Notes: generated by a model not told the origin, from the sequence alone. A DNA stretch of 64,000 bases from Gammaproteobacteria bacterium (GCA_041495205.1 JBGQCF010000003.1:57960-121959); one strand, 5' to 3'; counted from the first letter of the stretch, positions 2,467 to 27,243 are shown. Made by a program: numbers and translations.

Positions 2467-2494
2467 TCAGCTTCCTCCGTTAATCTGGAATTAA

Positions 2495-2524
2495 AAGGGG
2501 AAAATATATGTATATTTTCCCCTT
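2495..2524 (-). repeat. Perfect palindrome/hairpin (14-bp arms, 2-nt centre) in the aorB-aorC spacer
   Basis: AAGGGGAAAATATA (2495-2508) and TATATTTTCCCCTT (2511-2524) are exact reverse complements. Coordinates are anchored on the aorB stop (2548-2550) and the aorC start (2464-2466). Confidence 0.6.
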
Positions 2525-2547
2525 AGACCCTCAAAACCGGGTAAAAC

Positions 2548-4395
2548 TTACAGACCCAATCTTTGCCTTGTTTCCTTGGTCGGCACACCGTCAGGCGTCC
2601 AGCCGCGCAACTTGTAATATTCCGGCAGCATCTTGCTAAGCTCGTTCACCTTGCCTTTGGCGGGACCGGTCTTGGCGGGTTCGGTTAGCAGGCGTTTCGG
2701 CAGCGTATCGTCCTTTGCTGTGAAGCCGGCGGCGTTGTTGAATTCGCGCTCCATGTTCCAGATGCGTTCGCCGACCAGATTCAATTTCTCCAAAGACCAG
2801 TCACCCTCGCACGCGGCCTGAAGCTGTGGTTGAATGTCGTTCAAGGTCCAGGCAAAGGTGGTAAATACGCACAGCCCTGTAGAGTCCACCACCGCAGTCG
2901 CATCCTGAAAAGCTTTAACAAGTCCCGCCTTGCCGTCAGTGGTGAGGGGGTCGGTTTTCACCGGGATGCCCATTACTTCGGAAGCCACAGTGTAGCCACG
3001 CAGGTGGCAGGCGCCGCGGTTGGAAGTGGCGTAAGCCAAACCCATGCCCTGGATGCCGCGCGAATCATAAGCCGGGAACTCCTGTCCTTTCACCGTCATC
3101 GAGAGTTCCGGGTGGCCGTATTTTTCGCACATGCGTTTCGAACCCAGACCCAAAATCTTTCCGAAGCCTTCACCGTGTGCAGTCCATTCGGTGAACTTGC
3201 ACAACGCTTCGACGGAGCCGAAGGGCGCTTTAATGCCGGTGTCTTTTTCAGTAATCACGCCCAGTTCGTACAACTCCATCGCCGCGGCCACCGTGGCACC
3301 GAAAGTAATCGGGTCCATGCCGTCCTCATTACAGATAAAGTTAGCGTAGGTCAGCGCTTCCAGGTCGTCGACACCGTTGTCATTGCCCAATGCCCAAGCT
3401 GCTTCGTATTCCAGCCCACCTGAAGCGCCCCAGTATTCGGGCTTGTTCTTCACCGTCCAGTGAGTCTCGTCGATCTTCGAGATGCGTCCGCAAGCGATGG
3501 TGCACCCGAAACAAGCCTGGTTGGTCACCAGATTGGCTTTGCCGTCGGTTGGACGCTTCTCATGCATCGCCTCAGCGGATATTTTTCTCGCGCCTTCAAA
3601 CTGCACATCGCGATGGTTGCGCGTCGGGGAGGCGCCCATTTCATTGATGACGTTCATCAACACCTGGGTTCCGTACTTCGGCAGACCTTGGCCCGTCACC
3701 GCGTTGTCAGCAAGTACTTTCTTCGCTGCGAATGTCGCTCTCATGAACTCTTTCGGATTGGCGACAGTCACGCCCTTGGTGCCGCGCACAGCGACAGCTT
3801 TGAGGTTTTTCGATCCCATCACCGCACCTACGCCGGAACGCCCTGCCGCGCGGTGCAAATCATTCACAATCGCGGCGAAAAGAACTTTATTTTCGCCTGC
3901 GCGCCCGATGGAAGATACGCGAATCAGCGGGTCCTGGTGTTTTTTCTTGATGAGTTCTTCGGTATCCCAAACCGATTTGCCCCAAATGAAATTTTCCGCG
4001 GGCAACAATTCGGCCTTTTCGTTTTGTATAAGCAAATACACCGGTTTGGGCGATTTGCCCTCGAAGATAATCATGTCCCAGCCTGCCATCTTGAGTTCCG
4101 TGCCGAAATAACCGCCTGAATTGGAACATGCAATCGCGCCGGTAAGCGGGCCTTTGGTAATCACCGAATAGCGGGCGCCGGTGGATGCCATGGTTCCGGT
4201 CAACGGGCCGGTGGCGAAAATCAGCTTATTGTCTGGCGACAACGGATCCACTTTGGGATCGATTTCCTCCACCAGATACTTGGTGGCCAGGCCGCGCTGC
4301 CCCAGGTATTCCTGCACCCATTTCATGTTTAGAGGTTCGGCCTTGCAGGTACCCTTGCTCAGATTCACCCGTAAAACTTGTTTATGCCACGCCAT
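2548..4395 (-). CDS. aorB: Tungsten-pterin aldehyde:ferredoxin oxidoreductase family catalytic subunit (AorB-like)
   Basis: 615 aa. AOR-family signatures: N-terminal MAWHKQVLRVNLSKG..., GLEYEA, 4Fe-4S ligands CFGCTIACGR plus DSTGLCVF, GxxHLRGY. Confidence 0.92.
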   Translation of the reverse strand: MAWHKQVLRVNLSKGTCKAEPLNMKWVQEYLGQRGLATKYLVEEIDPKVDPLSPDNKLIFATGPLTGTMASTGARYSVITKGPLTGAIACSNSGGYFGTELKMAGWDMIIFEGKSPKPVYLLIQNEKAELLPAENFIWGKSVWDTEELIKKKHQDPLIRVSSIGRAGENKVLFAAIVNDLHRAAGRSGVGAVMGSKNLKAVAVRGTKGVTVANPKEFMRATFAAKKVLADNAVTGQGLPKYGTQVLMNVINEMGASPTRNHRDVQFEGARKISAEAMHEKRPTDGKANLVTNQACFGCTIACGRISKIDETHWTVKNKPEYWGASGGLEYEAAWALGNDNGVDDLEALTYANFICNEDGMDPITFGATVAAAMELYELGVITEKDTGIKAPFGSVEALCKFTEWTAHGEGFGKILGLGSKRMCEKYGHPELSMTVKGQEFPAYDSRGIQGMGLAYATSNRGACHLRGYTVASEVMGIPVKTDPLTTDGKAGLVKAFQDATAVVDSTGLCVFTTFAWTLNDIQPQLQAACEGDWSLEKLNLVGERIWNMEREFNNAAGFTAKDDTLPKRLLTEPAKTGPAKGKVNELSKMLPEYYKLRGWTPDGVPTKETRQRLGL

Positions 4396-4416
4396 GGTGT
4401 GTCTCCTTCAATCTGG

Positions 4417-4896
4417 TCAGGCTTGCGCCTTGTGACTGGTGTCGGTTTTGGTCGCCCACATGCGCATTCTTTCGAGGCCGGTCCAATCGGAATCCACATA
4501 GGTAATCGCGCCGGTGGGACAGGCTTGCGCGCACGCCGGATCGCCGCCGCACAAATCACATTTCATAACCTTGCCTGTATCGTGGTTGTAATTCACCGTG
4601 CCGAATGGACAGGCAATGGTGCACACCTTGCAGCCGACACAGACGTCGTCGAGTATGACCTTTGCACCGGTATTGACATCCAGCTTGATCGCCTCGACCG
4701 GACATGCATGCAGACACCAGGCTTCCGCGCACTGGGTACAGGTATATGGCACCTTCCTGCCATCGTGATGAAACTCAAAAACCTTTATGACCGACTTAGA
4801 GGGATTGAACATCCCAAAGTGTTCGAACGAACAGGCCATTTCACACTGCAAACAGCCGGTACATATATCGGGGTTGATAAGCAATGACCTTTGCAT
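4417..4896 (-). CDS. aorA: 4x[4Fe-4S] ferredoxin-like electron-transfer subunit (AorA-like)
   Basis: Four Cys cluster motifs (CTGCLQCEMAC, CTQCAEAWCLHACP, CVGCKVCTIACP, CDLCGGDPACAQACP). It lies 21 nt upstream of aorB. Confidence 0.9.
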   Translation of the reverse strand: MQRSLLINPDICTGCLQCEMACSFEHFGMFNPSKSVIKVFEFHHDGRKVPYTCTQCAEAWCLHACPVEAIKLDVNTGAKVILDDVCVGCKVCTIACPFGTVNYNHDTGKVMKCDLCGGDPACAQACPTGAITYVDSDWTGLERMRMWATKTDTSHKAQA

Positions 4897-6299: not shown

Positions 6300-7568
6300 A
6301 TGACCAGCAAATCTCTGCGCGAATTGAGTTGCGCGGACGATTACGATCCGAATTCCATGCCTGTCGCGAAAGCACGAGAATTCATCCAGGCTTATCTCAC
6401 TCCCGTCGCCGGCATAGAAAAAGTAAACATCCGCGCAACGTTGGGGCGGGTGCTGGCCGAGGACATCATCTCGCTCATCAACGTCCCGTCCCATGTCAAT
6501 TCGGCAATGGACGGCTATGCAGTGCGTTTCAAAGATCTGAATGCTAACGGCGAGACGGTGTTACGCATGACAGGTAGCGCGCTTGCGGGAAAACCTTACG
6601 CGGGCCGAGTCAGCGACAAACAATGCGTGCGCATCATGACTGGTGCGGTGCTGCCGCAAGGAACAGACACTGTCATCATGCAGGAGCATGCAAGCGCCGA
6701 CGGCTCGAATATCCGCTTTGGTGGAGGGCACAAGCTGGGACAGAACATCCGCCAGGCGGGCGAAGATCTCGCTATCGGCCAGGTTGTGCTCAAGACTGGA
6801 AAGCACATCCGCCCTGCCGAGCTGGGACTGCTTGCTTCGTTGGGCATCGCGGAAATTGCCGTGCGGCGGCGCCTGCGCGTGGCATTCTTTTCTACAGGCG
6901 ATGAACTACGCTCAATTGGCAATCCGCTGGAAGAAGGCCAGATTTACGACAGCAATCGCTACACCATTTACGGTATGTTGACCCGCTTGGGGGCGGAAGT
7001 GCTGGACATGGGTGTGGTCATGGACGATCCGGCCAGCCTGGAACGAGCACTCAGCGAAGCAGCAGCCACAGCGGATGTGGTAATTACAAGCGGCGGCGTC
7101 TCCGTGGGAGAAGCGGATTACATCAAAGAGCTGCTCAGCCAACTGGGCGAAGTCGTGTTCTGGAAAATCGCGATGAAGCCCGGAAGACCGCTGGCTTACG
7201 GCAAAATCGGCCAAGCGCATTTCTTTGGCCTGCCCGGCAACCCGGTGTCGGTCATGGTCACGTTCTACCAATTCGTACGCGAGGCACTGCTGATCCTGAT
7301 GGGGCGCAAGGACGATTATGCTGTTCCTACACTCAAAGCGACATGCGCCAGTGCGCTCAGAAAAGCCCCCGGCCGCACCGAATTCCAGCGTGGTATTCTC
7401 AGCCGGGATAAAAACGGCGAATGGACGGTACACGTGACTGGAGAACAGGGTTCGGGGATATTGCGCTCGATGTCGCAGGCAAACTGCTTTATCGTCCTGC
7501 CAGACTCCCAGGGCAACGTGGCTGCGGGCAGCATGGTTGAAGTACAAGTGCTCGAAGGCTTGGTATAG
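6300..7568 (+). CDS. moeA: Molybdopterin molybdenum/tungsten transferase MoeA
   Basis: 422 aa. SAMDGYAV, TGDEL, SGGVSVGEADY and GLPGNPVS motifs. Confidence 0.93.
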   Translation: MTSKSLRELSCADDYDPNSMPVAKAREFIQAYLTPVAGIEKVNIRATLGRVLAEDIISLINVPSHVNSAMDGYAVRFKDLNANGETVLRMTGSALAGKPYAGRVSDKQCVRIMTGAVLPQGTDTVIMQEHASADGSNIRFGGGHKLGQNIRQAGEDLAIGQVVLKTGKHIRPAELGLLASLGIAEIAVRRRLRVAFFSTGDELRSIGNPLEEGQIYDSNRYTIYGMLTRLGAEVLDMGVVMDDPASLERALSEAAATADVVITSGGVSVGEADYIKELLSQLGEVVFWKIAMKPGRPLAYGKIGQAHFFGLPGNPVSVMVTFYQFVREALLILMGRKDDYAVPTLKATCASALRKAPGRTEFQRGILSRDKNGEWTVHVTGEQGSGILRSMSQANCFIVLPDSQGNVAAGSMVEVQVLEGLV

Positions 7569-7578
7569 CAGCAATAAT

Positions 7579-7605
7579 AAAGCCCGGGATGAGCCGGGCT
7601 TTTTC
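7579..7605. terminator. Bidirectional rho-independent terminator between convergent moeA and the FDH operon
   Basis: AAAGCCCGG / CCGGGCTTT stem followed by TTTTT. An A-rich run on the left provides a U-tract for the minus strand. Confidence 0.75.
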
Positions 7606-7971: not shown

Positions 7972-9036
7972 TTACGGCCGGGCTTGTGCGGTGCCCGCCG
8001 CACCCATCGGTTTCTGAGCGCTCTTGCCGGATTTGATATCGTTGTACCAGAGTTCGTGATGCTCCTTGGCCCAAGTTTCATCAACTGTGCCGTTACGCAT
8101 CGATTCGTAAGCGCCTTCCACTCCCAGCGTACCCATGTAGATGTGGCCTAGCGAAGCGGCAATGAAGATGACCGCAACGACTGCGTGAATCACGTTGGCC
8201 TGCTGCATCATGGCGCGCCCTTGCTCAAAGTTCGGGAAATCCAGAATAAGCCCGGTCACTGCGGCGATGATGCTCAACAGGAAAACACCGAACCAGAACC
8301 AGGACTTCTCACCGGCATTGAAGCGGTCCGAGGGCACGTGCTCCTTGCTGAACATTCCGCCGGCTTTCTTGAACCACAACATGTCGTGAGCCTTCCACCA
8401 GTTGTCCTTGACAAAGGTCACGAACATCGCCGCCACACAGAAGATGAAAAGCGGGCCTACAAAGTTGTGCAGGTTTTTCGAGAGAATGGCGAGCCATGAA
8501 AACAAGGTGTAACCGAAAATCGGCAGGACGATATGCTTGCCGAACAGTATGATTACGCCGCTTATCGCCAGCACCACGAAACTGATCGCGGTGGACCAAT
8601 GCACCACCCGTTCCCAGTCGCTGAAGCGCTGGATCATGCGGCTAGTCGGCTTATCATGCAGCTTAAGCGGGCCGTACCTGCGGTAAAATAGAAAGATCAA
8701 CACCGGCACCGCGATGAGCAAGATGCCGCCGTAAAACGTGACCGGACCATTGCGCAGTTCGCGCCACGTCTCGCCGCCGGATTGCATCAGTACACCGGTT
8801 TCCACACCTTTCACCGTGGTGTAGTTCTGCTCCCCGGAGCGCACTTCGCGCCAAATCGGGGCATTGTTATAGGGCTGATCTAACTGGCGTTGGACTTGGG
8901 TGTCTTTATTTTCAGCCGCCACAGCCGCCGCATCTTTCTGGCCAGTGTCAGCGGCTGAAACTACGTTGCTGGACAGCAAAAACGCCACTACCAACATGAG
9001 CTTCAACAGAATACCGCCAAGGACTGTTTTCCTCAT
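7972..9036 (-). CDS. fdhC: Formate dehydrogenase gamma subunit (cytochrome b, FdnI/FdoI family) with N-terminal periplasmic extension
   Basis: Signal peptide plus a roughly 100-aa soluble segment, then four TM helices with conserved His (RFSDWERVVHWS, NLHNFVGP, HAVVAV, HIYMG). AGGAGAA SD. Confidence 0.88.
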   Translation of the reverse strand: MRKTVLGGILLKLMLVVAFLLSSNVVSAADTGQKDAAAVAAENKDTQVQRQLDQPYNNAPIWREVRSGEQNYTTVKGVETGVLMQSGGETWRELRNGPVTFYGGILLIAVPVLIFLFYRRYGPLKLHDKPTSRMIQRFSDWERVVHWSTAISFVVLAISGVIILFGKHIVLPIFGYTLFSWLAILSKNLHNFVGPLFIFCVAAMFVTFVKDNWWKAHDMLWFKKAGGMFSKEHVPSDRFNAGEKSWFWFGVFLLSIIAAVTGLILDFPNFEQGRAMMQQANVIHAVVAVIFIAASLGHIYMGTLGVEGAYESMRNGTVDETWAKEHHELWYNDIKSGKSAQKPMGAAGTAQARP

Positions 9037-9931: not shown

Positions 9932-12850
9932 TTAGGCCTTGCTGACCTGGCACAAGGTGGTCTTGCTCTCCTGCATCATGGTGACCGAGTCATACCCGTA
10001 GGTGGTCGCGGTATTGACCGCTTCCCCGCGCACTATGGGATGCGCGCCTTCAGGATAGTATTCCAGCATGTCCTTGCCCATCCACCATCCGGAGAAGTGG
10101 AACGGCAGGAACACCGTTCCCGACGCCACACGTTCAGTCACCCAGGCTTTAACCTTCAGCCGTGCCTTGGTCGGCGATTCGACCCACATATACTCGTTGT
10201 TGCGGATGCCGCGGTCGTTGGCGTCCTTGGAATTGATCTCCGCATACATATCCTGCTGCAGTTCGGCAAGCCACGGGTTGGAGCGAGTCTCTTCCCCGCC
10301 GCCTTCGTACTCCACCATGCGGCCGCTGGTCATGATGAGTGGATATTGCTTGGAGATATCCTTGTTCTTCTCCTGGATCGTCTTGAACAACGTCGGGAGC
10401 CGCCAGAAAGCTTTCTTGTCGTCGTGAGTCGGGTACTTCTCGACCAGATCCGGCCGTGGGCTGAACAGCGGTTCACGATGCAAAGGCACAGGATCCGGGA
10501 AATTCCATACCAGAGCGCGCGCCTTGGCGTTGCCGAACGGATGGCAGCCGTGCTTCATCACCACGCGTTGAATACCGCCGGACACGTCGGTTTTCCAGTT
10601 CTTCCCCTCGGCCTTGGCTTTTTCCGCCTCGGTAAGCTCTTCCCACCAGCCGAGTTTCTTCAGTAATACATGATCGAATTCCGGATAACCGGTAGTGATT
10701 TCCGCGCCCAGCGAGTGCGAGCCGTCTTCCGCCAGCAGATTGACGCCGTCCTTCTCGACGCCAAAGTTAGCGCGGAAGTTGCCGCCGCCGTCCATCACGT
10801 GCTTGGAGGTGTTGTACAGGTTGGGCGTGCCGGGATGCTTCAACTCCGGCGTGCCGTAACACGGCCAAGGCAAACCGAAGTAATCGCCATCCAGCACATA
10901 GCCTGTCTTGGCGTCCTTGCCGCCTTTGGCGCGCAGGGTCTTCACGTCGAACACGTGCATGTTGCGCATATGGGCCTGCAGGCGCTCCGGCGACTGGCCG
11001 GTGTAACCGATGGTCCACGCGCCGCGGTTGAATTCGCGGGTGATGTCTTCGATATTGGGTTGGTCCTTATCCACGCGGATGTTCTGCTTGCCATCCTTCT
11101 TGCCCACCAACTGGTCAGCAAAGCCGAATTTCTTGGCGAAAAGATACATAATGGTTTCGTCGGGCTTGGACTCGAACAGCGGTTCGATCACCTTTTCGCG
11201 CCATTGCAGCGAGCGATTAGAGGCGGTTACCGAACCGGAGGTTTCGAACTGAGTTGCCGCCGGCAGCAGGTAGACGCCGTCTTTTCTTACCATCGCTGCC
11301 ATCGCCGCTGAAGCAGAAGGATAAGGATCGATCACCACCAGTAGATCGAGTTTCTTCATCGCCTCGATCATCTCTGCGCCGCGAGTCTGGCTGTTCGGCG
11401 CATGGCCCCAGTAGATTACTGCGCGAATGTTCGGACCTTGGTCAATGTTCTCGTTTTTCTCCATGACTCCGTCAATCCAGCGGGAGACGGTAATGCCAGG
11501 CTTGCCCATCATACCCGCAGAATACTGTGTCTTAAGCCACTCGAAATCCACGTTCCAGACATTGCACCAGTGTTTGAACGAACCTTCAGCAAGGCCGTAG
11601 TACCCTGGCAGCGAGTCCGGGTTGGGCCCGAGGTCGGTCGCTCCCTGTACGTTATCGTGGCCGCGGTAGATGTTGCAGCCGCCGCCGGAAACGCCCACAT
11701 TGCCCAAGGCAAGTTGCAGGATGCAGCTAGCCCTCACCATAGCGTTGCCAATAGTATGCTGGGTCTGTCCCATCGCCCACACAATCGTGCTGGGACGGTT
11801 TTTGGCCATGGCTTCGGCAATCGTGTACACCTCTTTCTCGGTGAGTCCTGTTACGTCCTGCACCTTGTCAGGCGTCCATTTCGCGACTTCTTCGCGCACT
11901 TTTTCCATGCCGTAGACACGGTCATGGATGTATTGCTTGTCCTCCCACTCGTTCTTGAAGATGTGATACAGGAGGCCCCAAATCAGCGCCACGTCGCTGC
12001 CGGAGCGATGACGGAAATACATGTCCGCCTTGGCCGCGGTGCGCGTAAAACGCGGGTCCACTACGATAACTTTCGCTCCCGTTTCCTTGGCATGCAGGGT
12101 ATGCAGCATGGAAACCGGATGTGCCTCGCAGGCGTTGCTGCCGAGGAATAAGATGCACTTGGAGAATTGCTCGTCGTTGTAGGAATTGGTCATCGCACCA
12201 TAACCCCAGGTGTTGGCGACGCCTGCCACCGTAGTGGAGTGGCAGATGCGCGCTTGGTGGTCGGTGTTGTTGGTGCCGAACAGACGCACATACTTGCACA
12301 TCAGATAGGCCTGCTCGTTGCTATGCTTGGATGAGCCGATCCAGTAAGTGGCATCGGGCCCGCTTTCCTTGCGGATGGCGAGCAGCTTGTCGCCGACTTC
12401 GTTGATGGCCTGCTCCCAGCTGATTTTCTTCCACTTTCCGCCCTCCAGCTTCATCGGGTATTTCAGCCGATGCTCGCCGTGGCCGTGTTCGCGCACCGAC
12501 GCGCCCTTGGCGCAGTGCGCGCCGAGATTGAGCGGAGAATCAAAAACCGGCTCTTGGCGCACCCAAACGCCATTTTGCACTACGGCGTCAATGGCACAAC
12601 CCACCGAACAGTGCGTACAGACCGTACGCTTGACCTGGATCTTGCCGTCGCCCTTGGTATCGGATGCGGCGCCGGCTTTGCCAATCATGTTGAATGGCAG
12701 CTGGCTGGCAAATGCGCCGGCACCGACAGTGAGACCGGAACGCTTTAGGAATGTCCGGCGGTCCATGGTTTTGCCGACCACGCCTGACAAGCTGCGGCTT
12801 AGGCGGTTGGGTATTCCTGCAACCGCGCTGGATTTTCTGGTAAGCAGCAT
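9932..12850 (-). CDS. fdhA: Formate dehydrogenase alpha subunit (bis-MGD, Tat-exported, Cys-type)
   Basis: Twin-arginine MDRRTFLKRSG, N-terminal CTHCSVGC cluster, and ARICHSTTVAG where E. coli FdnG has Sec. The ATG at 12850 has a strong AAGGAGAG SD. The alternative ATG at 12766 (directly before the RR motif) has a weak SD. Confidence 0.93.
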   Translation of the reverse strand: MLLTRKSSAVAGIPNRLSRSLSGVVGKTMDRRTFLKRSGLTVGAGAFASQLPFNMIGKAGAASDTKGDGKIQVKRTVCTHCSVGCAIDAVVQNGVWVRQEPVFDSPLNLGAHCAKGASVREHGHGEHRLKYPMKLEGGKWKKISWEQAINEVGDKLLAIRKESGPDATYWIGSSKHSNEQAYLMCKYVRLFGTNNTDHQARICHSTTVAGVANTWGYGAMTNSYNDEQFSKCILFLGSNACEAHPVSMLHTLHAKETGAKVIVVDPRFTRTAAKADMYFRHRSGSDVALIWGLLYHIFKNEWEDKQYIHDRVYGMEKVREEVAKWTPDKVQDVTGLTEKEVYTIAEAMAKNRPSTIVWAMGQTQHTIGNAMVRASCILQLALGNVGVSGGGCNIYRGHDNVQGATDLGPNPDSLPGYYGLAEGSFKHWCNVWNVDFEWLKTQYSAGMMGKPGITVSRWIDGVMEKNENIDQGPNIRAVIYWGHAPNSQTRGAEMIEAMKKLDLLVVIDPYPSASAAMAAMVRKDGVYLLPAATQFETSGSVTASNRSLQWREKVIEPLFESKPDETIMYLFAKKFGFADQLVGKKDGKQNIRVDKDQPNIEDITREFNRGAWTIGYTGQSPERLQAHMRNMHVFDVKTLRAKGGKDAKTGYVLDGDYFGLPWPCYGTPELKHPGTPNLYNTSKHVMDGGGNFRANFGVEKDGVNLLAEDGSHSLGAEITTGYPEFDHVLLKKLGWWEELTEAEKAKAEGKNWKTDVSGGIQRVVMKHGCHPFGNAKARALVWNFPDPVPLHREPLFSPRPDLVEKYPTHDDKKAFWRLPTLFKTIQEKNKDISKQYPLIMTSGRMVEYEGGGEETRSNPWLAELQQDMYAEINSKDANDRGIRNNEYMWVESPTKARLKVKAWVTERVASGTVFLPFHFSGWWMGKDMLEYYPEGAHPIVRGEAVNTATTYGYDSVTMMQESKTTLCQVSKA

Positions 12851-12868: not shown

Positions 12869-13075
12869 TCAGACTTTCGTGGTTCGGTAGTAATTTCGAA
12901 TATGCTCCGAGACATGATAGCCCTTGCCTTTGGCTTCATCCCCAGCCTCTGCATTGGTCTCGGCTTGGGGCACGCTCTTGGCAAGCATGGCCGCCGCTGC
13001 GCCGGCGCCTCCTGCGCCAACCGCAAGCAGGAAGTTCCTTCTGCTCAATCTGCTCTTGTTCTTGGTCTCTGCCAT
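12869..13075 (-). CDS. Formate-dehydrogenase-region TAT-target micro-protein
   Basis: 68 aa from MAETKNKSRLSRRNFLLAVGAGGAGAAAA (twin-arginine signal) with a roughly 30-aa mature part. GGAAGGAGA SD. Resembles the TIGR02811-type protein as I recall it. Confidence 0.75.
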   Translation of the reverse strand: MAETKNKSRLSRRNFLLAVGAGGAGAAAAMLAKSVPQAETNAEAGDEAKGKGYHVSEHIRNYYRTTKV

Positions 13076-13113
13076 TTTGTGTCTCCTTCCAAAAAGATCG
13101 TTGCCGCCCAAAG

Positions 13114-13746
13114 TTATAACATTTCGAAAGACTCGGCTTCTATATTGAAAAAAACCTTTGTGAAGCGTGCTACGTGCTTGTAAAAATTTGCCGCTTCCTT
13201 CTCACGCACCGCATCGCAAAAACGCTCGTACCAGGTTTGGATGTGGCGGGCGAAAAACTGCTTTTGCTGTTCCAGGTCCGCTGCGTCGCGATTTTCATCA
13301 CCGGTAATCAAATAGCGCATCACATCACACAGCGCGGAAAGGTGGTCTTCGGGTTCGTGCACTGACTCGTCTCGGGCAAACCCCAGCTTTGCCAGATCGT
13401 CGCGCAGCAAGGCAAGCGGTTTTTCCATCATGAAGCCCGCAAGATAATATGAGCCAAACAGCATCACTTCAGGCCGCCCGACCCCGATAAACAGTTTCTC
13501 ATATTCTTCTTCCACGGCTTCCGCGTCACAGGCCTGTGCAGCGGCAGCTAGCGCATGCCACGCTTCCGCCAAGGGCGCGTTGGCGGTTTCCGCAACGATT
13601 TCGTCGGCGGCGGCAATGGCTCGCAGCAATTGTTCATCCGGGGCATACAACAGGCGTGCAATCAGCGCATACATGTCTGCGCGCGCCACGTCTTCCTGGG
13701 CTACGGGGGGGGGACTCAATCTGACCTGAGCGACTGCTGCGGTCAT
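13114..13746 (-). CDS. TorD/DmsD-family redox-enzyme maturation chaperone
   Basis: 210 aa and acidic. LYALIARLLY, EEEYEKLFIG and YLAGF motifs are typical of TorD-like proteins. Sits directly upstream of the Tat substrates. Confidence 0.8.
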   Translation of the reverse strand: MTAAVAQVRLSPPPVAQEDVARADMYALIARLLYAPDEQLLRAIAAADEIVAETANAPLAEAWHALAAAAQACDAEAVEEEYEKLFIGVGRPEVMLFGSYYLAGFMMEKPLALLRDDLAKLGFARDESVHEPEDHLSALCDVMRYLITGDENRDAADLEQQKQFFARHIQTWYERFCDAVREKEAANFYKHVARFTKVFFNIEAESFEML

Positions 13747-13758
13747 CAGCTCCTCACA

Positions 13759-15846
13759 TCAGCTTTTCACATCAAAAATCGTCAACTCGTTCTTGTTCTT
13801 CAGCATGTCAACGACTCTGCAATCCGCGCACATTTGCAACCGGGTAAGCGCGGCGCCTCCGCTGAACATCGAATGAGTACCGAGTTTGCCCAGCATGTTG
13901 TCTATCATCTGCTTGGTGGCAAAAGGTTTTCCGCAGCGGATGCACGCGAAAACCTCGGCTTCGTTAAGTATTCTCGGATTCCGCGCTTCCTTAGTCAATA
14001 ACAATCTGGGGGTGAGGCTGATGGCCTGTTCCGGGCAGGTTTTCACGCACAGCCCGCACTGCACGCAATTGCGTTCAATGAACTTGAGCTGAGGCAATTC
14101 CTTGGAATCCTGCAGGGCGTTTTCCGGACACGCACCGACACAAGCCATGCATAGGGTACAGGTATCTTTATTAACGTCTATTTTGCCGTAAGGAGCGCCG
14201 CCTGAAAGCGGGATTTCCTCCTTGGGAGAAGGGGCATTATTGGTCAAATGGTCAAAGGCAAAATCCAGCGTGGTGCGCTTTTCGTTAAAAAGATTGAAAC
14301 TCGCCGGCTTGACCGGCCGGGCGGGCTGGATGCTCCACACTGCTTTTTCGAGGGCGGCCACATCCCGCGCTTCAATAAGCTGGAAATGACTCCCGTTATA
14401 ACCCAGCCCCTGCAGGATTTCTTCGGCGTATCCCATTTGGGCGCGCAGCGAAACCAGGTAATCCGGGGCTTCGCTGCCGGCTGCCAGCACCACTAAGTTA
14501 GATGCACCGAGCGCCACGGCGCCAAGCATTACGTCCATGCCGAGTGAAGCAATGTGGAAAGTCTCCAGCGGTATGACGTTGGCCGGCAGGCCTTTACCGC
14601 GGCGGCCAAGCTTGGCGATCAGCTCGCGCCCGTCGGCCGCGTTATGCAGCAGCAAACAGGGATCCTTACCGCCTGCACTAAGATAGGTTTGCAGCAGAGT
14701 TTTGATGCGTGCGCCCAGGTCGGCCACGCGCGGATAGGCGTAGCCCATCGCGCCTGAGGGACAAACGCTGGCGCAGGCGCCACATCCCATGCACAAATGC
14801 GGCTCCACTTTAACGTGATCGCCATCCGGTGAAATAGCGCGGGTCGAGCAAATATCAATGCACTGCGAGCAACCGGTAATTTCCGAGCGGCTGTGTGCGC
14901 AAATTGATTCCTTGTAGGTGAAAAATTTGGGCTTTTCGAATTCCCCGGTCATCTGCGCCAGCTGATTGACTGCGCGCGCCAGCGCCAGCGGATCATGGCC
15001 CGGGGCAAAATACCCCTGCGGCGGCTGATGCATGTTTAACAGCGGCGTATCGGATAAATCGAGAATCAGATCGTAATGTTCGGAACGCGCCGTGTCGCGC
15101 CGCTCGAAATCAACGGCCTTGATATCACCACAGGCGGCCACGCATTTGCGGTGCGCCTTGCATTTGTCGAGATCGATCTGGTAGCTGTAGTCAATCGCCT
15201 GCTCGGGACAGGCTTCGACACAGGCGTTGCAGCGTGTACAGATTTCCAGATCAATCGGGTTGACTTGGCTCCACGAGACCTCAAAAGCGCCCAGATAACC
15301 TTTCACTGCATCCACTTTCCCCGAAAACACCGGATAGCGCCGCTGTGCCGGCAATTCATACCCGCCTTTGGCGTCAGTCAGGAGCACGCTCACATCCATT
15401 TGCTCGGCAAGCTGCTCCGCCCATCCCAAAGCAGCCGATACCGGGCCGATGATCAGGAGTTGCCCCGCCGATTTGTAGCTAACGCTGGGTACCGGCTCAG
15501 GTTCGGGAAGCGCCGCGGCGGCAAGCAGTGCGGCGATTTTCGGCGTGGCTTTATCGGCTTCAGCCGACCAGCCCGCCTGTTCGCGGATGTTGACAAAAGA
15601 GACATCAATATTGGGGTCAATTTGCTCGGCGAGCTCGCCGAAGAGCCGCGCTTCCTGCGTACAGGCGACCAGCAGTTCACTACCTTGCTTGAGGCCCGCC
15701 TCAAAAGCCGATGCCTGGTGACGACATAGCTCATGGTGTATCACTACGGGTGTTTTGAGCTGCAAAGCGCGTGTCAGCGCCTTGGCATCCAATGGCATGG
15801 TCTTGTTGCAGTTACACACCAATATGTTTTTGCTATCTACAGCCAT
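13759..15846 (-). CDS. Large cytoplasmic multi-[4Fe-4S] protein (FDH-associated)
   Basis: 695 aa with no signal peptide. Six ferredoxin-type Cys motifs (CTRCNACVEACP, CKAHRKCVAACG, CSQCIDICS, CMGCGACASVCP, CTLCMACVGACP, CVQCGLCVKTCP) plus C-terminal CIRCG...CADC. Confidence 0.85.
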   Translation of the reverse strand: MAVDSKNILVCNCNKTMPLDAKALTRALQLKTPVVIHHELCRHQASAFEAGLKQGSELLVACTQEARLFGELAEQIDPNIDVSFVNIREQAGWSAEADKATPKIAALLAAAALPEPEPVPSVSYKSAGQLLIIGPVSAALGWAEQLAEQMDVSVLLTDAKGGYELPAQRRYPVFSGKVDAVKGYLGAFEVSWSQVNPIDLEICTRCNACVEACPEQAIDYSYQIDLDKCKAHRKCVAACGDIKAVDFERRDTARSEHYDLILDLSDTPLLNMHQPPQGYFAPGHDPLALARAVNQLAQMTGEFEKPKFFTYKESICAHSRSEITGCSQCIDICSTRAISPDGDHVKVEPHLCMGCGACASVCPSGAMGYAYPRVADLGARIKTLLQTYLSAGGKDPCLLLHNAADGRELIAKLGRRGKGLPANVIPLETFHIASLGMDVMLGAVALGASNLVVLAAGSEAPDYLVSLRAQMGYAEEILQGLGYNGSHFQLIEARDVAALEKAVWSIQPARPVKPASFNLFNEKRTTLDFAFDHLTNNAPSPKEEIPLSGGAPYGKIDVNKDTCTLCMACVGACPENALQDSKELPQLKFIERNCVQCGLCVKTCPEQAISLTPRLLLTKEARNPRILNEAEVFACIRCGKPFATKQMIDNMLGKLGTHSMFSGGAALTRLQMCADCRVVDMLKNKNELTIFDVKS

Positions 15847-15965
15847 AAGCCAAATAGATCCTTAAACAAGGGAGACTACTTTTTTATCCACGTCAGAGCC
15901 ACTCTTGTACGAGATAAAACAATTTACTTTTTGCTATAGAGATCACGCTCAGGCCTGCTGTTTCG

Positions 15966-16478
15966 CTATTTAACCGTCCTCAGCGAAACTATACCTTTTG
16001 CGACATTTTGTCCCAGCTTGGCGTCAGATTGAGTATTGGGTTCGGTTGTTTCCTGTTTGGACTCCAAAGCGGGTTGAGGCTGCTGTTGCGGCAAAGATTC
16101 CTGGCTCTTTTGCCCTTGGGATTCATCTGCAGGCTGCTCCTTAGTGGGAGGGAATAGCAAGGGGTTCGATTCCATCAGTCGTGCCAGCATTTCAGGAGGG
16201 ATCGGGTCGGGCTTGCCGTAATCGTCTATATATACGTCAAGACCGTCCATGACATTGAAATGCGGGTCGCTGAACAATTTGCGCAGCGCTTCGCGGCGCA
16301 GCTTCTCATCCACTTTCGGATGGAAGAAAGCGGTGTAATCCGATTCCAGATTGAGTTGTTCAACAGGCGGTAGTTTAGGTTCGTTGGCCAACGGCTTCGC
16401 CGGCTCGGTCTTGGCGAGACTCTCCGCCTCTTTTTTGAGACGGGACCACCTGCTCAGTAAAGATTCCTTGCGTTGCAT
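15966..16478 (-). CDS. DUF3306-like protein
   Basis: 170 aa. The N-terminal LLSRWSRLKKE motif and a Pro/Glu/Gln-rich tail fit my recollection of DUF3306, which accompanies this FDH type. Confidence 0.7.
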   Translation of the reverse strand: MQRKESLLSRWSRLKKEAESLAKTEPAKPLANEPKLPPVEQLNLESDYTAFFHPKVDEKLRREALRKLFSDPHFNVMDGLDVYIDDYGKPDPIPPEMLARLMESNPLLFPPTKEQPADESQGQKSQESLPQQQPQPALESKQETTEPNTQSDAKLGQNVAKGIVSLRTVK

Positions 16479-16481
16479 GGC

Positions 16482-16967
16482 TCAGCCGGTACTTTTGTCG
16501 GCCCTGCGCGCAGGCGACACAAAAGATTGGGGGCGCTGCCGTTTTTTTGGTTCTGGCTTGTAGTTTTGGTTCACGTAATCACCCAGCCACTCGGCAATGT
16601 CCGGCGGCATGGGCACTCCGTCAACCTGTTCATTGGAATCCATCCAGCGCGCGGCTTCGTTATAGCTTACTGTGACGATGTAGGGCACGGCCAAATCTTC
16701 CTGGGAACGCCAAGAGACAAAAACTTTAGGCTGGGGAGAACTCAAGTTTAAGTAATAACCCTCCGCCTCATCTGTATAAAGGGTCACATCGAATCCCGGA
16801 AATAATATTTGTTTTTGCCGAGCGTCTTCGAATATGACACGCCATTGCTTATTCCCGCCGCTGAGGTCGGGAACAATCCCTATCGCTTCCCACTTTTCAG
16901 AACACCACTTGTTATCTAAAGTCAGGCGTTCCATGATTACCGCTACCGTTATGCTGGGATGTTTCAT
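16482..16967 (-). CDS. DUF3305-like protein
   Basis: Start chosen at MKHPSITVAVIMERL because of the GGGGGAAGG SD. The ORF could extend to 17021. The stop lies 3 nt before the DUF3306 start. Confidence 0.7.
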   Translation of the reverse strand: MKHPSITVAVIMERLTLDNKWCSEKWEAIGIVPDLSGGNKQWRVIFEDARQKQILFPGFDVTLYTDEAEGYYLNLSSPQPKVFVSWRSQEDLAVPYIVTVSYNEAARWMDSNEQVDGVPMPPDIAEWLGDYVNQNYKPEPKKRQRPQSFVSPARRADKSTG

Positions 16968-17111
16968 CGCCTTCCCCCATTCAGCCATGATTCTGCGCCG
17001 GGGTGGCAAAAGATACAACATAAAGCCACTGTTAAAATATGGGTATTCAGTGTATTTTCTTTCATCTCCATTTATGGTTATATCTTGTAATAACTTTCTA
17101 TAGGCTGAGGC

Positions 17112-17945
17112 ATGGGTACCCCCTACCGCCCGAAAATCACTCGCGCGAGCCGGCCGCTCACGTTTGCCGTGCGCTCAATGAACGAACATGGCGAATGGTC
17201 GGATACGCAAATAGCCGGCGAACATCCTCTTACTTTGTATGTGGACAAGCGGGAAATCGTAACCCTCATGACCCTGGGCGCGGCGCCGGAAGCGCTGGCT
17301 ATCGGTTACCTGCGCAATCAGCGCCTGGTGAACAGTATTGATGAGATCAAAACCGTACAAGTGGACTGGGAAACCGGAGCGGTCGCTGTAACCACGCGGC
17401 ATGGTATTCAGGACCTCGACGGGCGTATGAAAAAACGCACGGTCACCACCGGTTGCGGCCAAGGCACGGTGTTTGGCGAGCTGATGGATGAAATCGACAA
17501 ACTCGAACTGCCGAGCGATGTTTATCTCGCCGAGGAAACCTATTACGCGTTGATGGACAACGTGCGCCGCCACGACACGGTCTACAAAACCGCAGGCGCG
17601 GTGCACGGCTGCGCGCTATGCAAGGGCAGTGAAATCCTGATGTTCGTCGAGGACGTGGGCAGGCACAATGCGGTGGATGCCATTGCCGGGCAAATGTGGC
17701 TGGATCGCATCGAAGGCCAAGACAAGATTTTCTATACCACCGGGCGCCTTACTTCCGAGATGGTAATCAAATGCGCGCAGATGGAGATCCCTTTCCTGGT
17801 GTCCCGCTCGGGGCTCACCCAGATGGGTTATGAAATCGCGAAAAAAATCGGCCTCACCATGATCGGCCGCGCCGCCGGCAAGCATTATCTGCTGTTCACC
17901 GGCGAGTCGCGCTTCATCAAATCCAAGCAGGTTTCACTCACCTGA
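17112..17945 (+). CDS. fdhD: Formate dehydrogenase accessory sulfurtransferase FdhD
   Basis: TGCGQGTVFG, GAVHGCAL and EDVGRHNAVD motifs. Confidence 0.93.
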   Translation: MGTPYRPKITRASRPLTFAVRSMNEHGEWSDTQIAGEHPLTLYVDKREIVTLMTLGAAPEALAIGYLRNQRLVNSIDEIKTVQVDWETGAVAVTTRHGIQDLDGRMKKRTVTTGCGQGTVFGELMDEIDKLELPSDVYLAEETYYALMDNVRRHDTVYKTAGAVHGCALCKGSEILMFVEDVGRHNAVDAIAGQMWLDRIEGQDKIFYTTGRLTSEMVIKCAQMEIPFLVSRSGLTQMGYEIAKKIGLTMIGRAAGKHYLLFTGESRFIKSKQVSLT

Positions 17946-17953
17946 GTTCATTC

Positions 17954-18565
17954 ATGGAAAAAATCACCGGCGTGGTTCTGGCGGGCGGCCGGGGCCGGCG
18001 CATGGGCGGGGTGGACAAGGGATTGACTTTGCTGCAAGGCAGGCCTTTTATCGAATGGGTGTTAGCCCGCTTCAGCCCGCAAGTGGATGAAGTGCTGATT
18101 AACGCCAACCAGAATCTCGAACAATACGCGCGCTTCGGTTACCGCGTCATTCCGGACGAAATCGGCAGTTTTGCCGGCCCCCTCGCCGGATTACACCGCG
18201 GACTTGCGGAGGCACAGCATGAACTTGTTGCTACCGTGCCCTGCGATTCGCCGTTTCTTCCTGAAGACCTGGTAGAGCGTCTGCATAAGGGACTCACTGC
18301 AGCAAAAGCGCAGCTTGCAGTAGCCAAAACTTTTACTCAAGCGCATCCTGTGTTTTGCCTGTGCCGGCGCGATGTGCTCGATCATTTGAGCGAGTTTCTC
18401 AATTCCGGCGGGCGCAAGATAGACGCCTGGTATGCGACTCTCAAGGTGGTGGAAGTGCCATTCGATGCCCAGGCCGAGGCGTTCAGCAACATCAACACGC
18501 GTGAGGAGCTAAGCGAGTTTGAAGCGGACGCCCAGCCCTCCAGTGCCGCGAAGAAAACTACCTGA
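17954..18565 (+). CDS. mobA: Molybdenum cofactor guanylyltransferase MobA
   Basis: GVVLAGGRGRRMGGVDKGL N-terminal motif, PCDSPF. 8 nt after fdhD. Confidence 0.93.
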   Translation: MEKITGVVLAGGRGRRMGGVDKGLTLLQGRPFIEWVLARFSPQVDEVLINANQNLEQYARFGYRVIPDEIGSFAGPLAGLHRGLAEAQHELVATVPCDSPFLPEDLVERLHKGLTAAKAQLAVAKTFTQAHPVFCLCRRDVLDHLSEFLNSGGRKIDAWYATLKVVEVPFDAQAEAFSNINTREELSEFEADAQPSSAAKKTT

Positions 18566-25102: not shown

Positions 25103-26164
25103 TCACTCAACCAGCCTGACCTGTGCATCTCCCGCTGTCATGTTGCCTATCCTGGCTGCGTAATTGAAACCCTGGTGTCTAAAAACTTCCAGTACCTGCG
25201 GCGTCGCGTCCTCACTGCAGGCCACCAGCAAACCACCGCTGGTTTGCGGATCGCATAACAGTTTCTTCTGCCACTCCGGCATCGCTTGAGGCAACACCAC
25301 TTGCTTGCCGTAGCCCGCCCAGTTGCGCTCGATCGCGCCGGGACCGACACCCTGCTTTGCCAAATCCAACGCTGCGGGAAGAATGGGCAACGCATCAAAG
25401 TGGATTTCCGCGCCCACTCTGGAACCGCGGCAAATCTCCAGTAAATGCCCGAGCAAACCGTATCCCGTAACATCGGTGAGCGCATGCACGCCAGCCATGT
25501 CGGCAAGCACCGGGCCCGCGGTATTAAGCTGCGTGGCGCTCTCCAGCATTTGCCGGTAACCCTGTTGCGACAATTTGCCTTTTTTCAGCGCCGCGCTCAT
25601 GATGCCAATCCCCAGCGCTTTACCGATAACCAGCGCATCCCCTGCGCGTGCAGTGTCGTTGCGCTTTACTTTGTCGGGGTGGACCAGACCCAGGCCCACC
25701 AGACCGTAAATAGGCTCTGGCGAGTCAATGGAATGACCTCCCGCTATGGGAATCCCCGCTTGCGTGCAAACCGCTTCACCGCCAGCCAAGATGCGCTGAA
25801 TCACCGCCACAGGGAGCTTGCCGATCGGCATGCCGACGATAGCAAGCGCCAGAATCGGACGTCCGCCCATCGCGTAAATGTCGGAGAGCGCATTGGCGGC
25901 GGCGATGCGGCCGAAATCATAAGGGTCATCCACTATCGGCATGAAAAAATCGGTGGTCGCGATCAGCGCCTGCGTTTCATTCAACCGGTAAACCGCAGCA
26001 TCATCGCTCGATTCGGTGCCGACCAGCAGATCAGGCCAGGTTTTGCCGATTGCCGATTGTGACAGGATTTCGCTTAACAGCGCCGGCGCGATTTTGCATC
26101 CGCAGCCGCCGCCATGCGAAAATGCAGTCAACTTGATATCACCAATTTCAGCCAATTGGTTCAT
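25103..26164 (-). CDS. selD: Selenide, water dikinase SelD (Cys-type)
   Basis: LTAFSHGGGCGCKIAP N-terminal active-site loop and AIR-synthase-like fold motifs (DDAAVY, TTDFF). Confidence 0.93.
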   Translation of the reverse strand: MNQLAEIGDIKLTAFSHGGGCGCKIAPALLSEILSQSAIGKTWPDLLVGTESSDDAAVYRLNETQALIATTDFFMPIVDDPYDFGRIAAANALSDIYAMGGRPILALAIVGMPIGKLPVAVIQRILAGGEAVCTQAGIPIAGGHSIDSPEPIYGLVGLGLVHPDKVKRNDTARAGDALVIGKALGIGIMSAALKKGKLSQQGYRQMLESATQLNTAGPVLADMAGVHALTDVTGYGLLGHLLEICRGSRVGAEIHFDALPILPAALDLAKQGVGPGAIERNWAGYGKQVVLPQAMPEWQKKLLCDPQTSGGLLVACSEDATPQVLEVFRHQGFNYAARIGNMTAGDAQVRLVE

Positions 26165-26169
26165 TTAAG

Positions 26170-27243
26170 ATGCTTCCTTTGCAATCTCGCGATGGAATAA
26201 ACGTAACACAGTTGCGCGACTTTGACGAGTTGATTGACGTGCGTACTCCCGAGGAGTTCAGCGAAGATCACATCCCGGGCGCCATCAACTGCCCGGTGCT
26301 TGACGATGCCGAAAGAAAACAGATCGGCACAATATATAAACAAGTCTCCAGCTTCGAAGCGAAAAAAATCGGCGCAGCCTTAGTGGCGCGCAATATCGCA
26401 CATCATATTGAAAAGATTTTTATCACACGGCAAAAAGACTGGCGGCCCCTGGTGTATTGCTGGCGCGGTGGAAACCGCAGCGCGGCGATGGTGCATGTTC
26501 TCGAACAAGTCGGCTGGCATGCCGGAAGGCTGCAAGGGGGCTACAAATCTTATCGCGCGGCAGTAATTGAGGGTTTGTTGAAGTTGCCCGGACAATTCCA
26601 GTTTCGCGTCATCTGCGGCCCAACCGGCTCAGGCAAAAGCCGGCTGATACAGGCGCTTGACCTGCTTGGCGTGCAAGTGCTGGACCTGGAGCGGCTTGCC
26701 GCGCACCGCGGCTCGGTGCTCGGCGGCCTGCCCGATGAGCCGCAGCCCACGCAAAAAATGTTTGAAAGCCTGATTTGGTCGAAGTTGCAGCGTTTCGATC
26801 CCAAAGAACGGGTTTATGTCGAATCCGAGAGCAAGAAAATCGGTAACGTAAGGGTGCCGGACGTATTGCTCGATGCGATGTGGCGCGGACATTGCATCCG
26901 CATCGAAGCCGACGCAAGCTTGCGCGCGAAGTTACTCAAAGAGGAATACCAGCATTTCCTGCGCGATCCCGAAACACTAATGCAGAAACTGGAATTTTTG
27001 ACTACACGTTTTGGCCACGAATTAATCACCCGCTGGAAAGGCTATGTGGCCGACCGGCAATGGGACGCTTTGGTAATGGAGTTGCTGGAGCGGCATTACG
27101 ACCCGGCTTACAGGAAATCAACCCTTAAACATTATCCTCAGTATCAGGATGCGGCGATTTTACATGTCAATACAACGGGCGATGCCGAAATACAGCGCCT
27201 TGCGCAAACCATTATTTCAGGGAACAAACAAAAATCAAAATGA
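26170..27243 (+). CDS. selU: tRNA 2-selenouridine synthase (SelU/MnmH/YbbB)
   Basis: Rhodanese domain with CWRGGNRS active-site loop, followed by P-loop GPTGSGKS. Confidence 0.92.
   Translation: MLPLQSRDGINVTQLRDFDELIDVRTPEEFSEDHIPGAINCPVLDDAERKQIGTIYKQVSSFEAKKIGAALVARNIAHHIEKIFITRQKDWRPLVYCWRGGNRSAAMVHVLEQVGWHAGRLQGGYKSYRAAVIEGLLKLPGQFQFRVICGPTGSGKSRLIQALDLLGVQVLDLERLAAHRGSVLGGLPDEPQPTQKMFESLIWSKLQRFDPKERVYVESESKKIGNVRVPDVLLDAMWRGHCIRIEADASLRAKLLKEEYQHFLRDPETLMQKLEFLTTRFGHELITRWKGYVADRQWDALVMELLERHYDPAYRKSTLKHYPQYQDAAILHVNTTGDAEIQRLAQTIISGNKQKSK

Follow-up and report, generated by a model that had tools for sequence, protein, structure and literature searches.

A candidate cytoplasmic assembly set, including DUF3305, DUF3306 and a polyferredoxin, at the head of a formate dehydrogenase operon

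Introduction

What do the genes contribute that precede the catalytic-subunit gene in the operon of an exported formate dehydrogenase (FDH)? The question arises from a 64-kb stretch of DNA from a gammaproteobacterium (GCA_041495205.1, JBGQCF010000003.1:57960-121959; hereafter the window), where the head of the fdh unit, at 12869-16967, encodes in turn a DUF3305 protein, a DUF3306 protein, a large iron-sulfur (Fe-S) protein, here called the polyferredoxin, a TorD-like protein and a twin-arginine micro-protein, all on the minus strand. An earlier reading made from the sequence alone (the sequence-only reading) had taken the five genes as one module and proposed that it may be an alternative maturation or quality-control system, or might instead form a cytoplasmic electron route. 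On grounds of sequence and analogy, we lean towards the view that the first four genes would be a cytoplasmic assembly set for apo-FdhA and FdhB before export by the twin-arginine translocation (Tat) pathway.

The association of these genes is not new. Bay, Chan and Turner (2015; PMC4464133) drew an operon DUF3305-DUF3306-fer4/hybA-dmsD/torD-fdh tat-fdhGHI, identical in families and order to that of the window, and found the association in about 60% of the fdh-linked loci of NarJ-subfamily chaperones. They proposed no function for DUF3305 and DUF3306. The statement of the sequence-only reading that neither has an assigned function agrees with Pfam, with NCBIfam and with the literature open to searching, where a full-text search gave a single relevant paper that names either family and none with a test of them. 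Like the window, Shewanella oneidensis MR-1 has the whole gene set (SO_4503-SO_4511: fdhD, two hypothetical genes, an Fe-S protein gene, fdhT, fdhX and fdhA1B1C1) around a near-identical class of enzyme, with FdhT and FdhX as the TorD-like protein and the Tat micro-protein (PMC13066108). However, it is a different organism, the window being identical to a JGI metagenome contig and having Burkholderiales as its nearest named relatives, and the roles of FdhT and FdhX in Shewanella are suggestions only. When so2426 was deleted in Shewanella, the genes listed as down-regulated included all of SO4503-4506 and SO4509 (PMC2535785). How FdhD, FdhE and TorD-type chaperones share the work of maturation is not yet settled (PMC10609526).

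To this we add a description of the domains that make up the polyferredoxin, links of the module with MobA, MobB and ApbC, the split between a cytoplasmic set and an exported peptide, the finding that the DUF3305 and DUF3306 proteins have no membrane segments, and a strict association with Cys-type FdhA.

Results and Discussion

The five open reading frames ahead of fdhA (Table 1) lie where the sequence-only reading had placed them, all on the strand of fdhA and with short gaps of 3 to 119 nt. From the DUF3305 gene through the DUF3306, Fe-S, TorD-like and micro-protein genes to fdhA, the gaps are 3, 119, 12, 38 and 18 nt. The region is most likely the head of a ten-gene operon for a periplasmic, membrane-bound, Cys-ligated FDH of the FDH3/Shewanella type. 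The transcription unit probably runs on, by way of the genes for a 72-residue lipoprotein, FdhC and a 107-residue secreted protein, to a terminator-like hairpin. Searched against Rfam, the operon showed neither a riboswitch nor any other RNA family, and a promoter scan gave matches no more numerous than in shuffled sequence. The first four proteins have no signal peptide, as had been claimed, and by Kyte-Doolittle hydropathy they have no membrane segment either. The 19-residue mean reaches at most 0.67 in DUF3305, 0.23 in DUF3306 and 1.02 in the TorD-like protein. The single hydrophobic stretch of the polyferredoxin falls within a confidently modelled alpha/beta domain. The enzyme behind them carries the twin-arginine motif DRRTFLK in FdhA and is Tat-exported, also as claimed. 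The label 'putative membrane proteins', which Bay et al. (2015) gave to DUF3305 and DUF3306, was rejected, since neither the window proteins nor their aligned homologues contain a hydrophobic segment.

Relatives of DUF3305 occur in at least 585 genome stretches. Synteny was counted at species level in the best 80 of these loci, all betaproteobacterial, wherever the contig was long enough. The order DUF3305-DUF3306-FeS-TorD-small-FdhA-FdhB-FdhC was invariant, with DUF3306, the Fe-S protein and TorD in place in 75/75, 68/68 and 63/63 loci and FdhA, FdhB and FdhC in 41/41, 40/40 and 39/39. The upstream neighbours were FdhD (62/62 loci), MoaA (71/74) and MobA (49/53); as a whole the set lies beside moaA-fdhD-mobA-moeA. 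Such an arrangement is far beyond chance. The phylogenetic linkage with FDH that the sequence-only reading presupposed was found in the 80 loci and in the divergent lineages described below, and the comparison it suggested, of co-occurrence with Cys- or Sec-type FdhA, had a uniform outcome: all 66 module-linked FdhA homologues (66/66) have Cys at the active-site position.

More telling than 80 related genomes are divergent lineages in which the order is broken and the parts are still kept together. In such distant lineages with shuffled gene order the Fe-S protein is only 34-49% identical. Diaphorobacter has DUF3305-DUF3306-FeS-TorD-MobA as one operon, divergent from small-FdhA-FdhB-hyp-FdhC-hyp-FdhD (hyp, hypothetical gene). 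In Roseobacteraceae, FeS-DUF6494-ApbC/Mrp-DUF4444-DUF6505 diverges from DUF3305-DUF3306-TorD-small-FdhABC; in Ralstonia, Mrp is directly upstream of DUF3305; and in Halomonas, MoaA-MoeA-MobA-FdhD is divergent from the module. Metagenomic contigs with an Fe-S protein of only 34-38% identity show three patterns: one locus (L092) has DUF3305 divergent from FeS-MobB, another (L093) has MoeA divergent from DUF6494-DUF3305-DUF3306-FeS-TorD-small-FdhABC, and loci L095 and L096 have three separate units, DUF3305-DUF3306, FeS and TorD-small-FdhABC. The Fe-S gene is divergent in locus L094. Azospirillum has DUF3305-DUF3306-TorD-FdhABC, and the stretch about this cluster that was mapped by tblastn contains no gene for the polyferredoxin. 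The polyferredoxin gene recurs beside that of the Fe-S carrier ApbC/Mrp and beside mobB.

On the Roseobacteraceae plasmids (L085, 7202-11647; L086, 7156-11626) the Fe-S gene heads a separate operon, in which the DUF4444 protein is biotin/lipoate-ligase-like. DUF6494 precedes DUF3305 in the distant locus L093 (7203-7409), and DUF4444 precedes DUF3305 in Azospirillum. The DUF6494, DUF4444 and DUF6505 proteins look like further uncharacterised members of the DUF3305/polyferredoxin system.

The TorD-like protein scores far above the family cut-off (Table 1) and below the NCBIfam equivalog cut-offs, with 57 bits for TorD (cut-off 132), 47 for DmsD (162) and 16 for NarJ (59); by these profiles it is a separate, fdh-linked branch of the TorD/DmsD/NarJ family. 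FdhA itself has a 27-residue extension (MLLTRKSSAVAGIPNRLSRSLSGVVGKT) before its twin-arginine motif, whose first ATG has a strong AGGAG 8 nt upstream. Tat signals bound by a dedicated chaperone typically have such long n-regions. The TorD-like protein corresponds to FdhT of Shewanella and FdhM of Campylobacter (PMC4148689, PMC13066108). In Campylobacter jejuni, FdhM (Cj1514), a TorD homologue encoded upstream of fdhA, is essential and specific for FDH activity (PMC4148689). As in the window, the TorD-family gene is directly upstream of a Tat-exported fdhA, but the accounts of FdhM (PMC4148689) describe no DUF3305, DUF3306 or polyferredoxin; the sequence of that locus itself was not examined.

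DUF3305 and DUF3306 both match their Pfam families well above the gathering threshold. For DUF3305 the alignment favours the ATG at 16967 as start, homologues beginning at an equivalent M-x-H/R-P-S; the open reading frame could also start at 16988 or 17021, and gene callers on identical contigs give 161 or 168 residues. The protein is soluble, with the acidic motifs DEAEGYYLN and SYNEAARWMD and no Cys or His conserved in the homologue alignment. Its AlphaFold2 model (predicted local distance difference test score, pLDDT, 90.5) is a beta-rich alpha/beta domain followed by a basic disordered tail, and Foldseek found no fold neighbour in the PDB (best E 0.27, template-modelling (TM) score <= 0.25). 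DUF3305 also matches the NCBIfam model NF011058, 'MobA, DUF3305 domain-containing', at positions 220-360, and the MobA of the window matches it at 8-198. Since the sister models of NF011058 are MobA/MobB fusions, DUF3305 takes the place of MobB in a fusion family. The DUF3306 gene begins 3 nt past the DUF3305 stop. Its product has an N-terminal motif LSRWSRxK (FLSRWSRRK) and a central motif LRRxALxKLFSDPHFNVMDGLDxYIDDY..PDPIP; outside these it is variable, of low complexity and mostly disordered, and the 73 aligned homologues range from 110 to 298 residues. Judged from the alignment, the protein looks like a tether that carries two motifs for binding. Neither protein has a conserved metal-binding motif in the homologue alignments.

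The polyferredoxin contains 32 Cys. Its Cys map agrees with the sequence-only reading in showing six ferredoxin-type motifs, which make up three two-cluster ferredoxin domains (203-213/229-239, 316-333/352-362 and 563-573/594-604), and a C-terminal CxxC...CxxC knuckle (C635xxC638...C673xxC676). An N-terminal four-Cys domain (C11, C13, C41, C62) was absent from that account. There are up to eight cluster sites in a chain-like arrangement. From the N-terminus the order is a four-Cys flavodoxin-like (MvhD-like) domain (residues 1-115), a Rossmann-like domain with an inserted 7-Cys ferredoxin (a unit at residues 120-300 without GxGxxG), a two-cluster ferredoxin, a Cys-less MvhD-like domain (395-510), a further two-cluster ferredoxin and the knuckle. 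The secondary-structure order of the two flavodoxin-like domains fits the MvhD matches.

In a Foldseek search with the AlphaFold2 model (pLDDT 94, predicted TM score 0.89), HdrA came out on top (E 5e-16, with a global TM of only 0.23-0.29), MvhD chains gave target-normalised TM values of 0.61-0.69, and HycF and FwdF followed. In this confident model the protein is put together from modules of HdrA/MvhD-like type, and it has no flavin motif. It resembles HdrA in domain types and order (N-terminal Cys domain, Rossmann-type domain with inserted ferredoxin, C-terminal ferredoxin), and two of its domains are MvhD-like. However, the likeness in sequence to HdrA is confined to the ferredoxin domains, the FAD-binding GxGxxG is missing, and of the thioredoxin-reductase module only about half is present. 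The HdrA models gave 51-61 bits against cut-offs of 1100-1400, and the NapF model TIGR00402 gave 61 bits (cut-off 102.2) over one ferredoxin domain, so the protein is not an equivalog of either. Its non-ferredoxin domains have no Pfam match at E <= 10, and the family profile matched PDB sequences in the ferredoxin domains only.

The polyferredoxin family comprises 922 clusters at 50% identity (E <= 1e-30). Among 70 diverse sequences the conserved core is residues 250-695. C316, C326, C329, C333, C352, C358 and C362 are invariant, as are all eight in 563-604 and the C-terminal four. Only 20/70 members have the inserted 7-Cys ferredoxin, and of the glycine motif only G134 is conserved. In the second CxxCxxC motif the middle residue, C355, is replaced in 19/70 while the neighbouring Cys are invariant, which by sequence is the classic signature of a [3Fe-4S] cluster replacing a [4Fe-4S] cluster in part of the family.

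How might these proteins work together? The TorD-family protein would bind the long Tat signal and the core of FdhA and retain the precursor until the cofactors are inserted; this role follows from its family and the FdhM precedent. DUF3305 and the translationally coupled, mostly disordered DUF3306 would be an adaptor leading from the synthesis and delivery of bis(molybdopterin guanine dinucleotide), or bis-MGD (MobA, FdhD), to the chaperone-bound apoenzyme, filling the slot that MobB has in other systems. This is suggested by the MobA-DUF3305 fusion family and by the mobA, mobB, moeA, moaA and fdhD neighbourhoods. The polyferredoxin would supply or repair the five [4Fe-4S] clusters of FdhAB, or give low-potential electrons during cofactor insertion. 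Here the ApbC/Mrp neighbourhood and the lack of a flavin or NAD(P) partner point the way, and NapF acting on NapA is the model. A polyferredoxin of the cytoplasm, NapF binds NapA, which needs it for its Fe-S cluster before Tat export (PMC10609526). Like the window protein, NapF contains several [4Fe-4S] clusters, and its gene accompanies those of a Tat-exported enzyme with Mo-bisPGD (PGD, pyranopterin guanine dinucleotide), the periplasmic nitrate reductase, and of a signal-binding chaperone (NapD). It differs in having about 160 residues and four cluster motifs, whereas the window protein has 695 residues with MvhD-like and Rossmann-like domains and the C-terminal four-Cys site.

Several points weigh against such an assembly set. 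The modelled fold of the polyferredoxin is of the electron-wire type (HdrA, MvhD, FwdF, HycF) and fits an electron route at least equally well, and in the model of DUF3305 no fold for binding nucleotides or pterins can be recognised. The gene for Mrp/ApbC is a housekeeping one and common, and its neighbourhood is known from a small sample of two lineages. The strict synteny is partly inherited, because the 80 genomes are all close betaproteobacterial relatives, and the divergent contexts inspected number only about ten. SoFdhAB, the S. oneidensis FDH, was obtained in active form from a plasmid carrying only fdhT-fdhX-fdhA-fdhB (PMC13066108); the host still had SO_4504-4506, so the experiment is uninformative on the need for them. 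With these points counted, the sequence context still supports maturation or quality control best. The fuller picture of an FdhE-independent assembly machine, in which DUF3305, DUF3306 and the polyferredoxin would join the TorD chaperone as a MobB-like adaptor of new fold and an Fe-S donor or reductant, is a tentative one to which we give limited credence.

The other proposal of the sequence-only reading, a cytoplasmic electron route, is the main rival. The polyferredoxin, perhaps docked through DUF3305 and DUF3306, would exchange electrons with the cytoplasmic face of FdhC and so link the oxidation of formate or the reduction of CO2 in the periplasm with a low-potential pool in the cytoplasm, in the manner of HdrD-HdrE or DsrK-DsrM. 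The best structural matches are indeed electron-transfer subunits, the cluster sites lie in a chain, and in the window the gene is probably co-transcribed with fdhABC. However, the protein has neither a flavin or NAD(P) motif nor, by hydropathy, a membrane-binding element, and the gene neighbourhood contains no flavin or NAD(P) partner and no acceptor enzyme. In other lineages the polyferredoxin gene leaves the structural operon to join mobA, mobB or ApbC/Mrp, not fdhC, and Azospirillum keeps the remaining genes with no polyferredoxin gene mapped. We therefore regard the route as improbable; the context favours maturation, and the fold of the polyferredoxin would still suit either.

The maturation proposal had been tied to the absence of fdhE, and here the outcome is divided. 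A tblastn search with E. coli FdhE as query (E <= 10) found no fdhE in the window, and no open reading frame with four CxxC pairs, sought besides the FdhE query, was present there, which bears out the absence noted by the sequence-only reading. The same search found none within 10 kb of 90 related loci (1.4 Mb in total). One could thus suppose that the whole set is a Tat proofreading device and that genomes with the module would not need fdhE, in contrast to the systematic association of fdhE with periplasmic FDH operons described in reviews (PMC10609526). The TorD family is a proven binder of Tat signals, and the invariant C-terminal CxxC...CxxC of the polyferredoxin recalls the rubredoxin-like sites of FdhE. 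FdhE of E. coli and Pseudomonas is, moreover, a Cys-rich iron protein for periplasmic FDH that lacks a signal peptide, as the polyferredoxin does. However, Bay et al. (2015; PMC4464133) report fdhD and fdhE in trans in all species with an fdh-linked TorD, and S. oneidensis has fdhE (SO0104) besides the module genes SO4503-4509 (PMC2535785). Nor are the two proteins homologous. The polyferredoxin was rejected as an FdhE homologue, the family including the C-terminus giving an hhalign probability of 0.85% against E. coli FdhE, and it has only one CxxC...CxxC pair outside its ferredoxin motifs, unlike members of the FdhE family (PF04216). Proofreading alone would also leave the links to MobA, MobB and ApbC unexplained. 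fdhE is never in cis and apparently often in trans, and we find a replacement of FdhE by this set doubtful. Of the original proposal, then, maturation is the part that context supports.

The micro-protein was misgrouped as part of a five-gene module. It matches the NCBIfam model TIGR02811, 'formate dehydrogenase region TAT target' (58.4 bits, cut-off 48.45), whose members have fewer than about 70 residues, a twin-arginine signal and a C-terminal Y-x-x-[TS]-x-H-[IV]-x-x-[YF]-Y and are encoded next to FDH genes, and it also matches the TAT signal model TIGR01409. It has an SRRNFL signal and contains GYHVSEHIRNYY, and its stop lies 18 nt upstream of fdhA. The signal and the last 17 residues, GYxx[ST]xH[IV]xxYYx[ST]xx[VI], are conserved and the linker is variable. 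A small open reading frame with RR is present between the TorD and FdhA genes in 66/67 loci. Where the accessory genes are split off, as in Diaphorobacter and in L095 and L096, the micro-protein gene stays directly upstream of fdhA; in Diaphorobacter it is in the divergent structural operon. It therefore belongs with the enzyme and not with the cytoplasmic set.

The micro-protein is most likely, from its sequence, a small subunit or an assembly factor of FDH. No PDB chain is related to it at E <= 10, so none in the solved FDHs including SoFdhAB. As the SoFdhAB used for cryo-EM was expressed from a construct with fdhX and without fdhC (PMC13066108), the micro-protein is unlikely to be a tight subunit of the soluble AB dimer. 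It would be a Tat-exported peptide of about 30 residues whose invariant C-terminal His/Arg/Tyr-Tyr motif docks on the periplasmic enzyme or on FdhC. That it docks FdhAB to FdhC or to the membrane, possibly with the 72-residue lipoprotein, is a reasonable idea on sequence grounds.

The enzyme encoded behind the module has an active-site Cys, not Sec, in FdhA (ARICHS, residue 203), and its FdhA matches that of Shewanella oneidensis (PDB 9vap_A) with 1329 bits. FdhB has no membrane helix (Kyte-Doolittle maximum 1.31), unlike E. coli FdnH, which has one. In FdhC an N-terminal stretch of some 130 residues, its start resembling a signal, precedes the cytochrome b561 domain (PF01292, from residue 137); E. 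coli-type gamma subunits (profile length 204-217) lack this extension. The lipoprotein encoded between fdhB and fdhC has the conserved pattern YKQGKYQGKPD...W..GD...WE...R...QNEY and is found at the equivalent position in 45 sequences, a count that takes in the window and, for example, Ralstonia and Diaphorobacter. No Pfam (E <= 10) or NCBIfam family covers it, and FDH3-type enzymes may have in it a small subunit or a membrane tether that has so far gone unrecognised. The 107-residue protein has a conserved block AKLPPPTEE.KAKAEE...QDRVAE.Y and a Pro/Ala-rich tail; its homologues follow fdhC in 9 other loci, and it has no Pfam match at E <= 10. At its far end the fdh unit is met by two converging genes of molybdenum cofactor (Moco) biosynthesis, moaA and moeA, and at its upstream end fdhD and mobA are divergent.

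Table 1. Features of the fdh operon and of the genes flanking it (positions in the window).
Feature	Position	Strand	Evidence and remarks
MoaA	5209-6210	+	Pfam Radical_SAM/Mob_synth_C; Moco biosynthesis
MoeA	6300-7568	+	Pfam MoeA_N/MoCF_biosynth/MoeA_C; Moco biosynthesis
Terminator-like hairpin	7579-7602	-	9 bp, 6 GC, then T-rich tail; likely end of ten-gene unit
Sec-signal Ala/Lys/Pro-rich protein, 107 aa	7623-7946	-	last gene of the unit, before the hairpin
FdhC, cytochrome b gamma subunit	7972-9036	-	TIGR01583 173 bits (cut-off 115.85); PF01292
Lipoprotein, 72 aa	9058-9276	-	lipobox LSGC; between fdhB and fdhC
FdhB, FDH3-type Fe-S beta subunit, 205 aa	9279-9896	-	NF038355 341.9 bits (cut-off 240)
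FdhA, Cys-type Mo/W-bisPGD catalytic subunit	9932-12850	-	Tat signal DRRTFLK
Twin-arginine micro-protein, 68 aa	12869-13075	-	NCBIfam TIGR02811; Shewanella FdhX
TorD/DmsD-family redox-enzyme maturation protein, 210 aa	13114-13746	-	PF02613 E 3e-33, 115.4 bits (cut-off 22.2)
Fe-S protein (polyferredoxin), 695 aa	13759-15846	-	Fer4 Pfam matches
DUF3306 protein, 170 aa	15966-16478	-	Pfam PF11748 E 1e-25, 91 bits (gathering threshold 25); profile positions 50-120 of 120, N-terminal part of profile unmatched
DUF3305 protein, 161 aa	16482-16967	-	Pfam PF11749 E 7e-50, 169.3 bits (gathering threshold 25); profile positions 2-140 of 140
FdhD sulfurtransferase	17112-17945	+	PF02634 E 1e-78; divergent from DUF3305
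MobA, molybdenum cofactor guanylyltransferase	17954-18565	+	TIGR02665 235 bits

The FDH of the window probably uses tungsten; the S. oneidensis enzyme SoFdhAB contains it (W 0.78 and Mo 0.05 per mol; PMC13066108). A tungsten-specific branch, in which the set would adapt the Moco pathway to make W-bisPGD and insert it selectively into this FDH, is nevertheless quite unlikely: the metal content of SoFdhAB, the closest characterised enzyme, the tungsten-type aldehyde:ferredoxin oxidoreductase and own moeA and moaA of the window and the Cys type of all module-linked FdhA would fit it, but DUF3305 and DUF3306 lack a conserved metal-binding motif, the window, where not every open reading frame was scanned, showed no gene for a tungstate transporter, and the enzymes of other lineages give no backing, only the Shewanella homologue having had its metal measured.

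Two further groups of genes in the window may be mentioned. At 950-4896, on the minus strand, the tungsten-type aldehyde:ferredoxin oxidoreductase (2548-4395) is accompanied by a 4Fe-4S protein (4417-4896) and an FAD/NAD oxidoreductase (1198-2466), and a small open reading frame at 950-1288 (minus strand), ending ...VAGG, resembles a MoaD/ThiS-type sulfur carrier. With this cluster, another tungstoenzyme is likely to be encoded beside the genes for FDH and Moco. At 25103-27243, selD (selenide, water dikinase; AIRS domains) is divergent from a gene resembling tRNA 2-selenouridine synthase. Selenium seems to serve tRNA modification and not selenoproteins here, FdhA being of the Cys type and no selA or selB having been seen.

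Conclusions

There is nothing out of the ordinary about this locus as a member of its module, which is very widespread and already catalogued but uncharacterised in function. The FDH class that the module accompanies includes the oxygen-tolerant tungsten enzyme of Shewanella, which is used for electrocatalytic CO2 reduction, and producing this class of FDH in other hosts depends on a knowledge of the accessory genes required. Roles for DUF3305 and DUF3306, two families that still go by DUF names, would supply a missing piece in the scheme by which periplasmic molybdo- and tungsto-enzymes mature.

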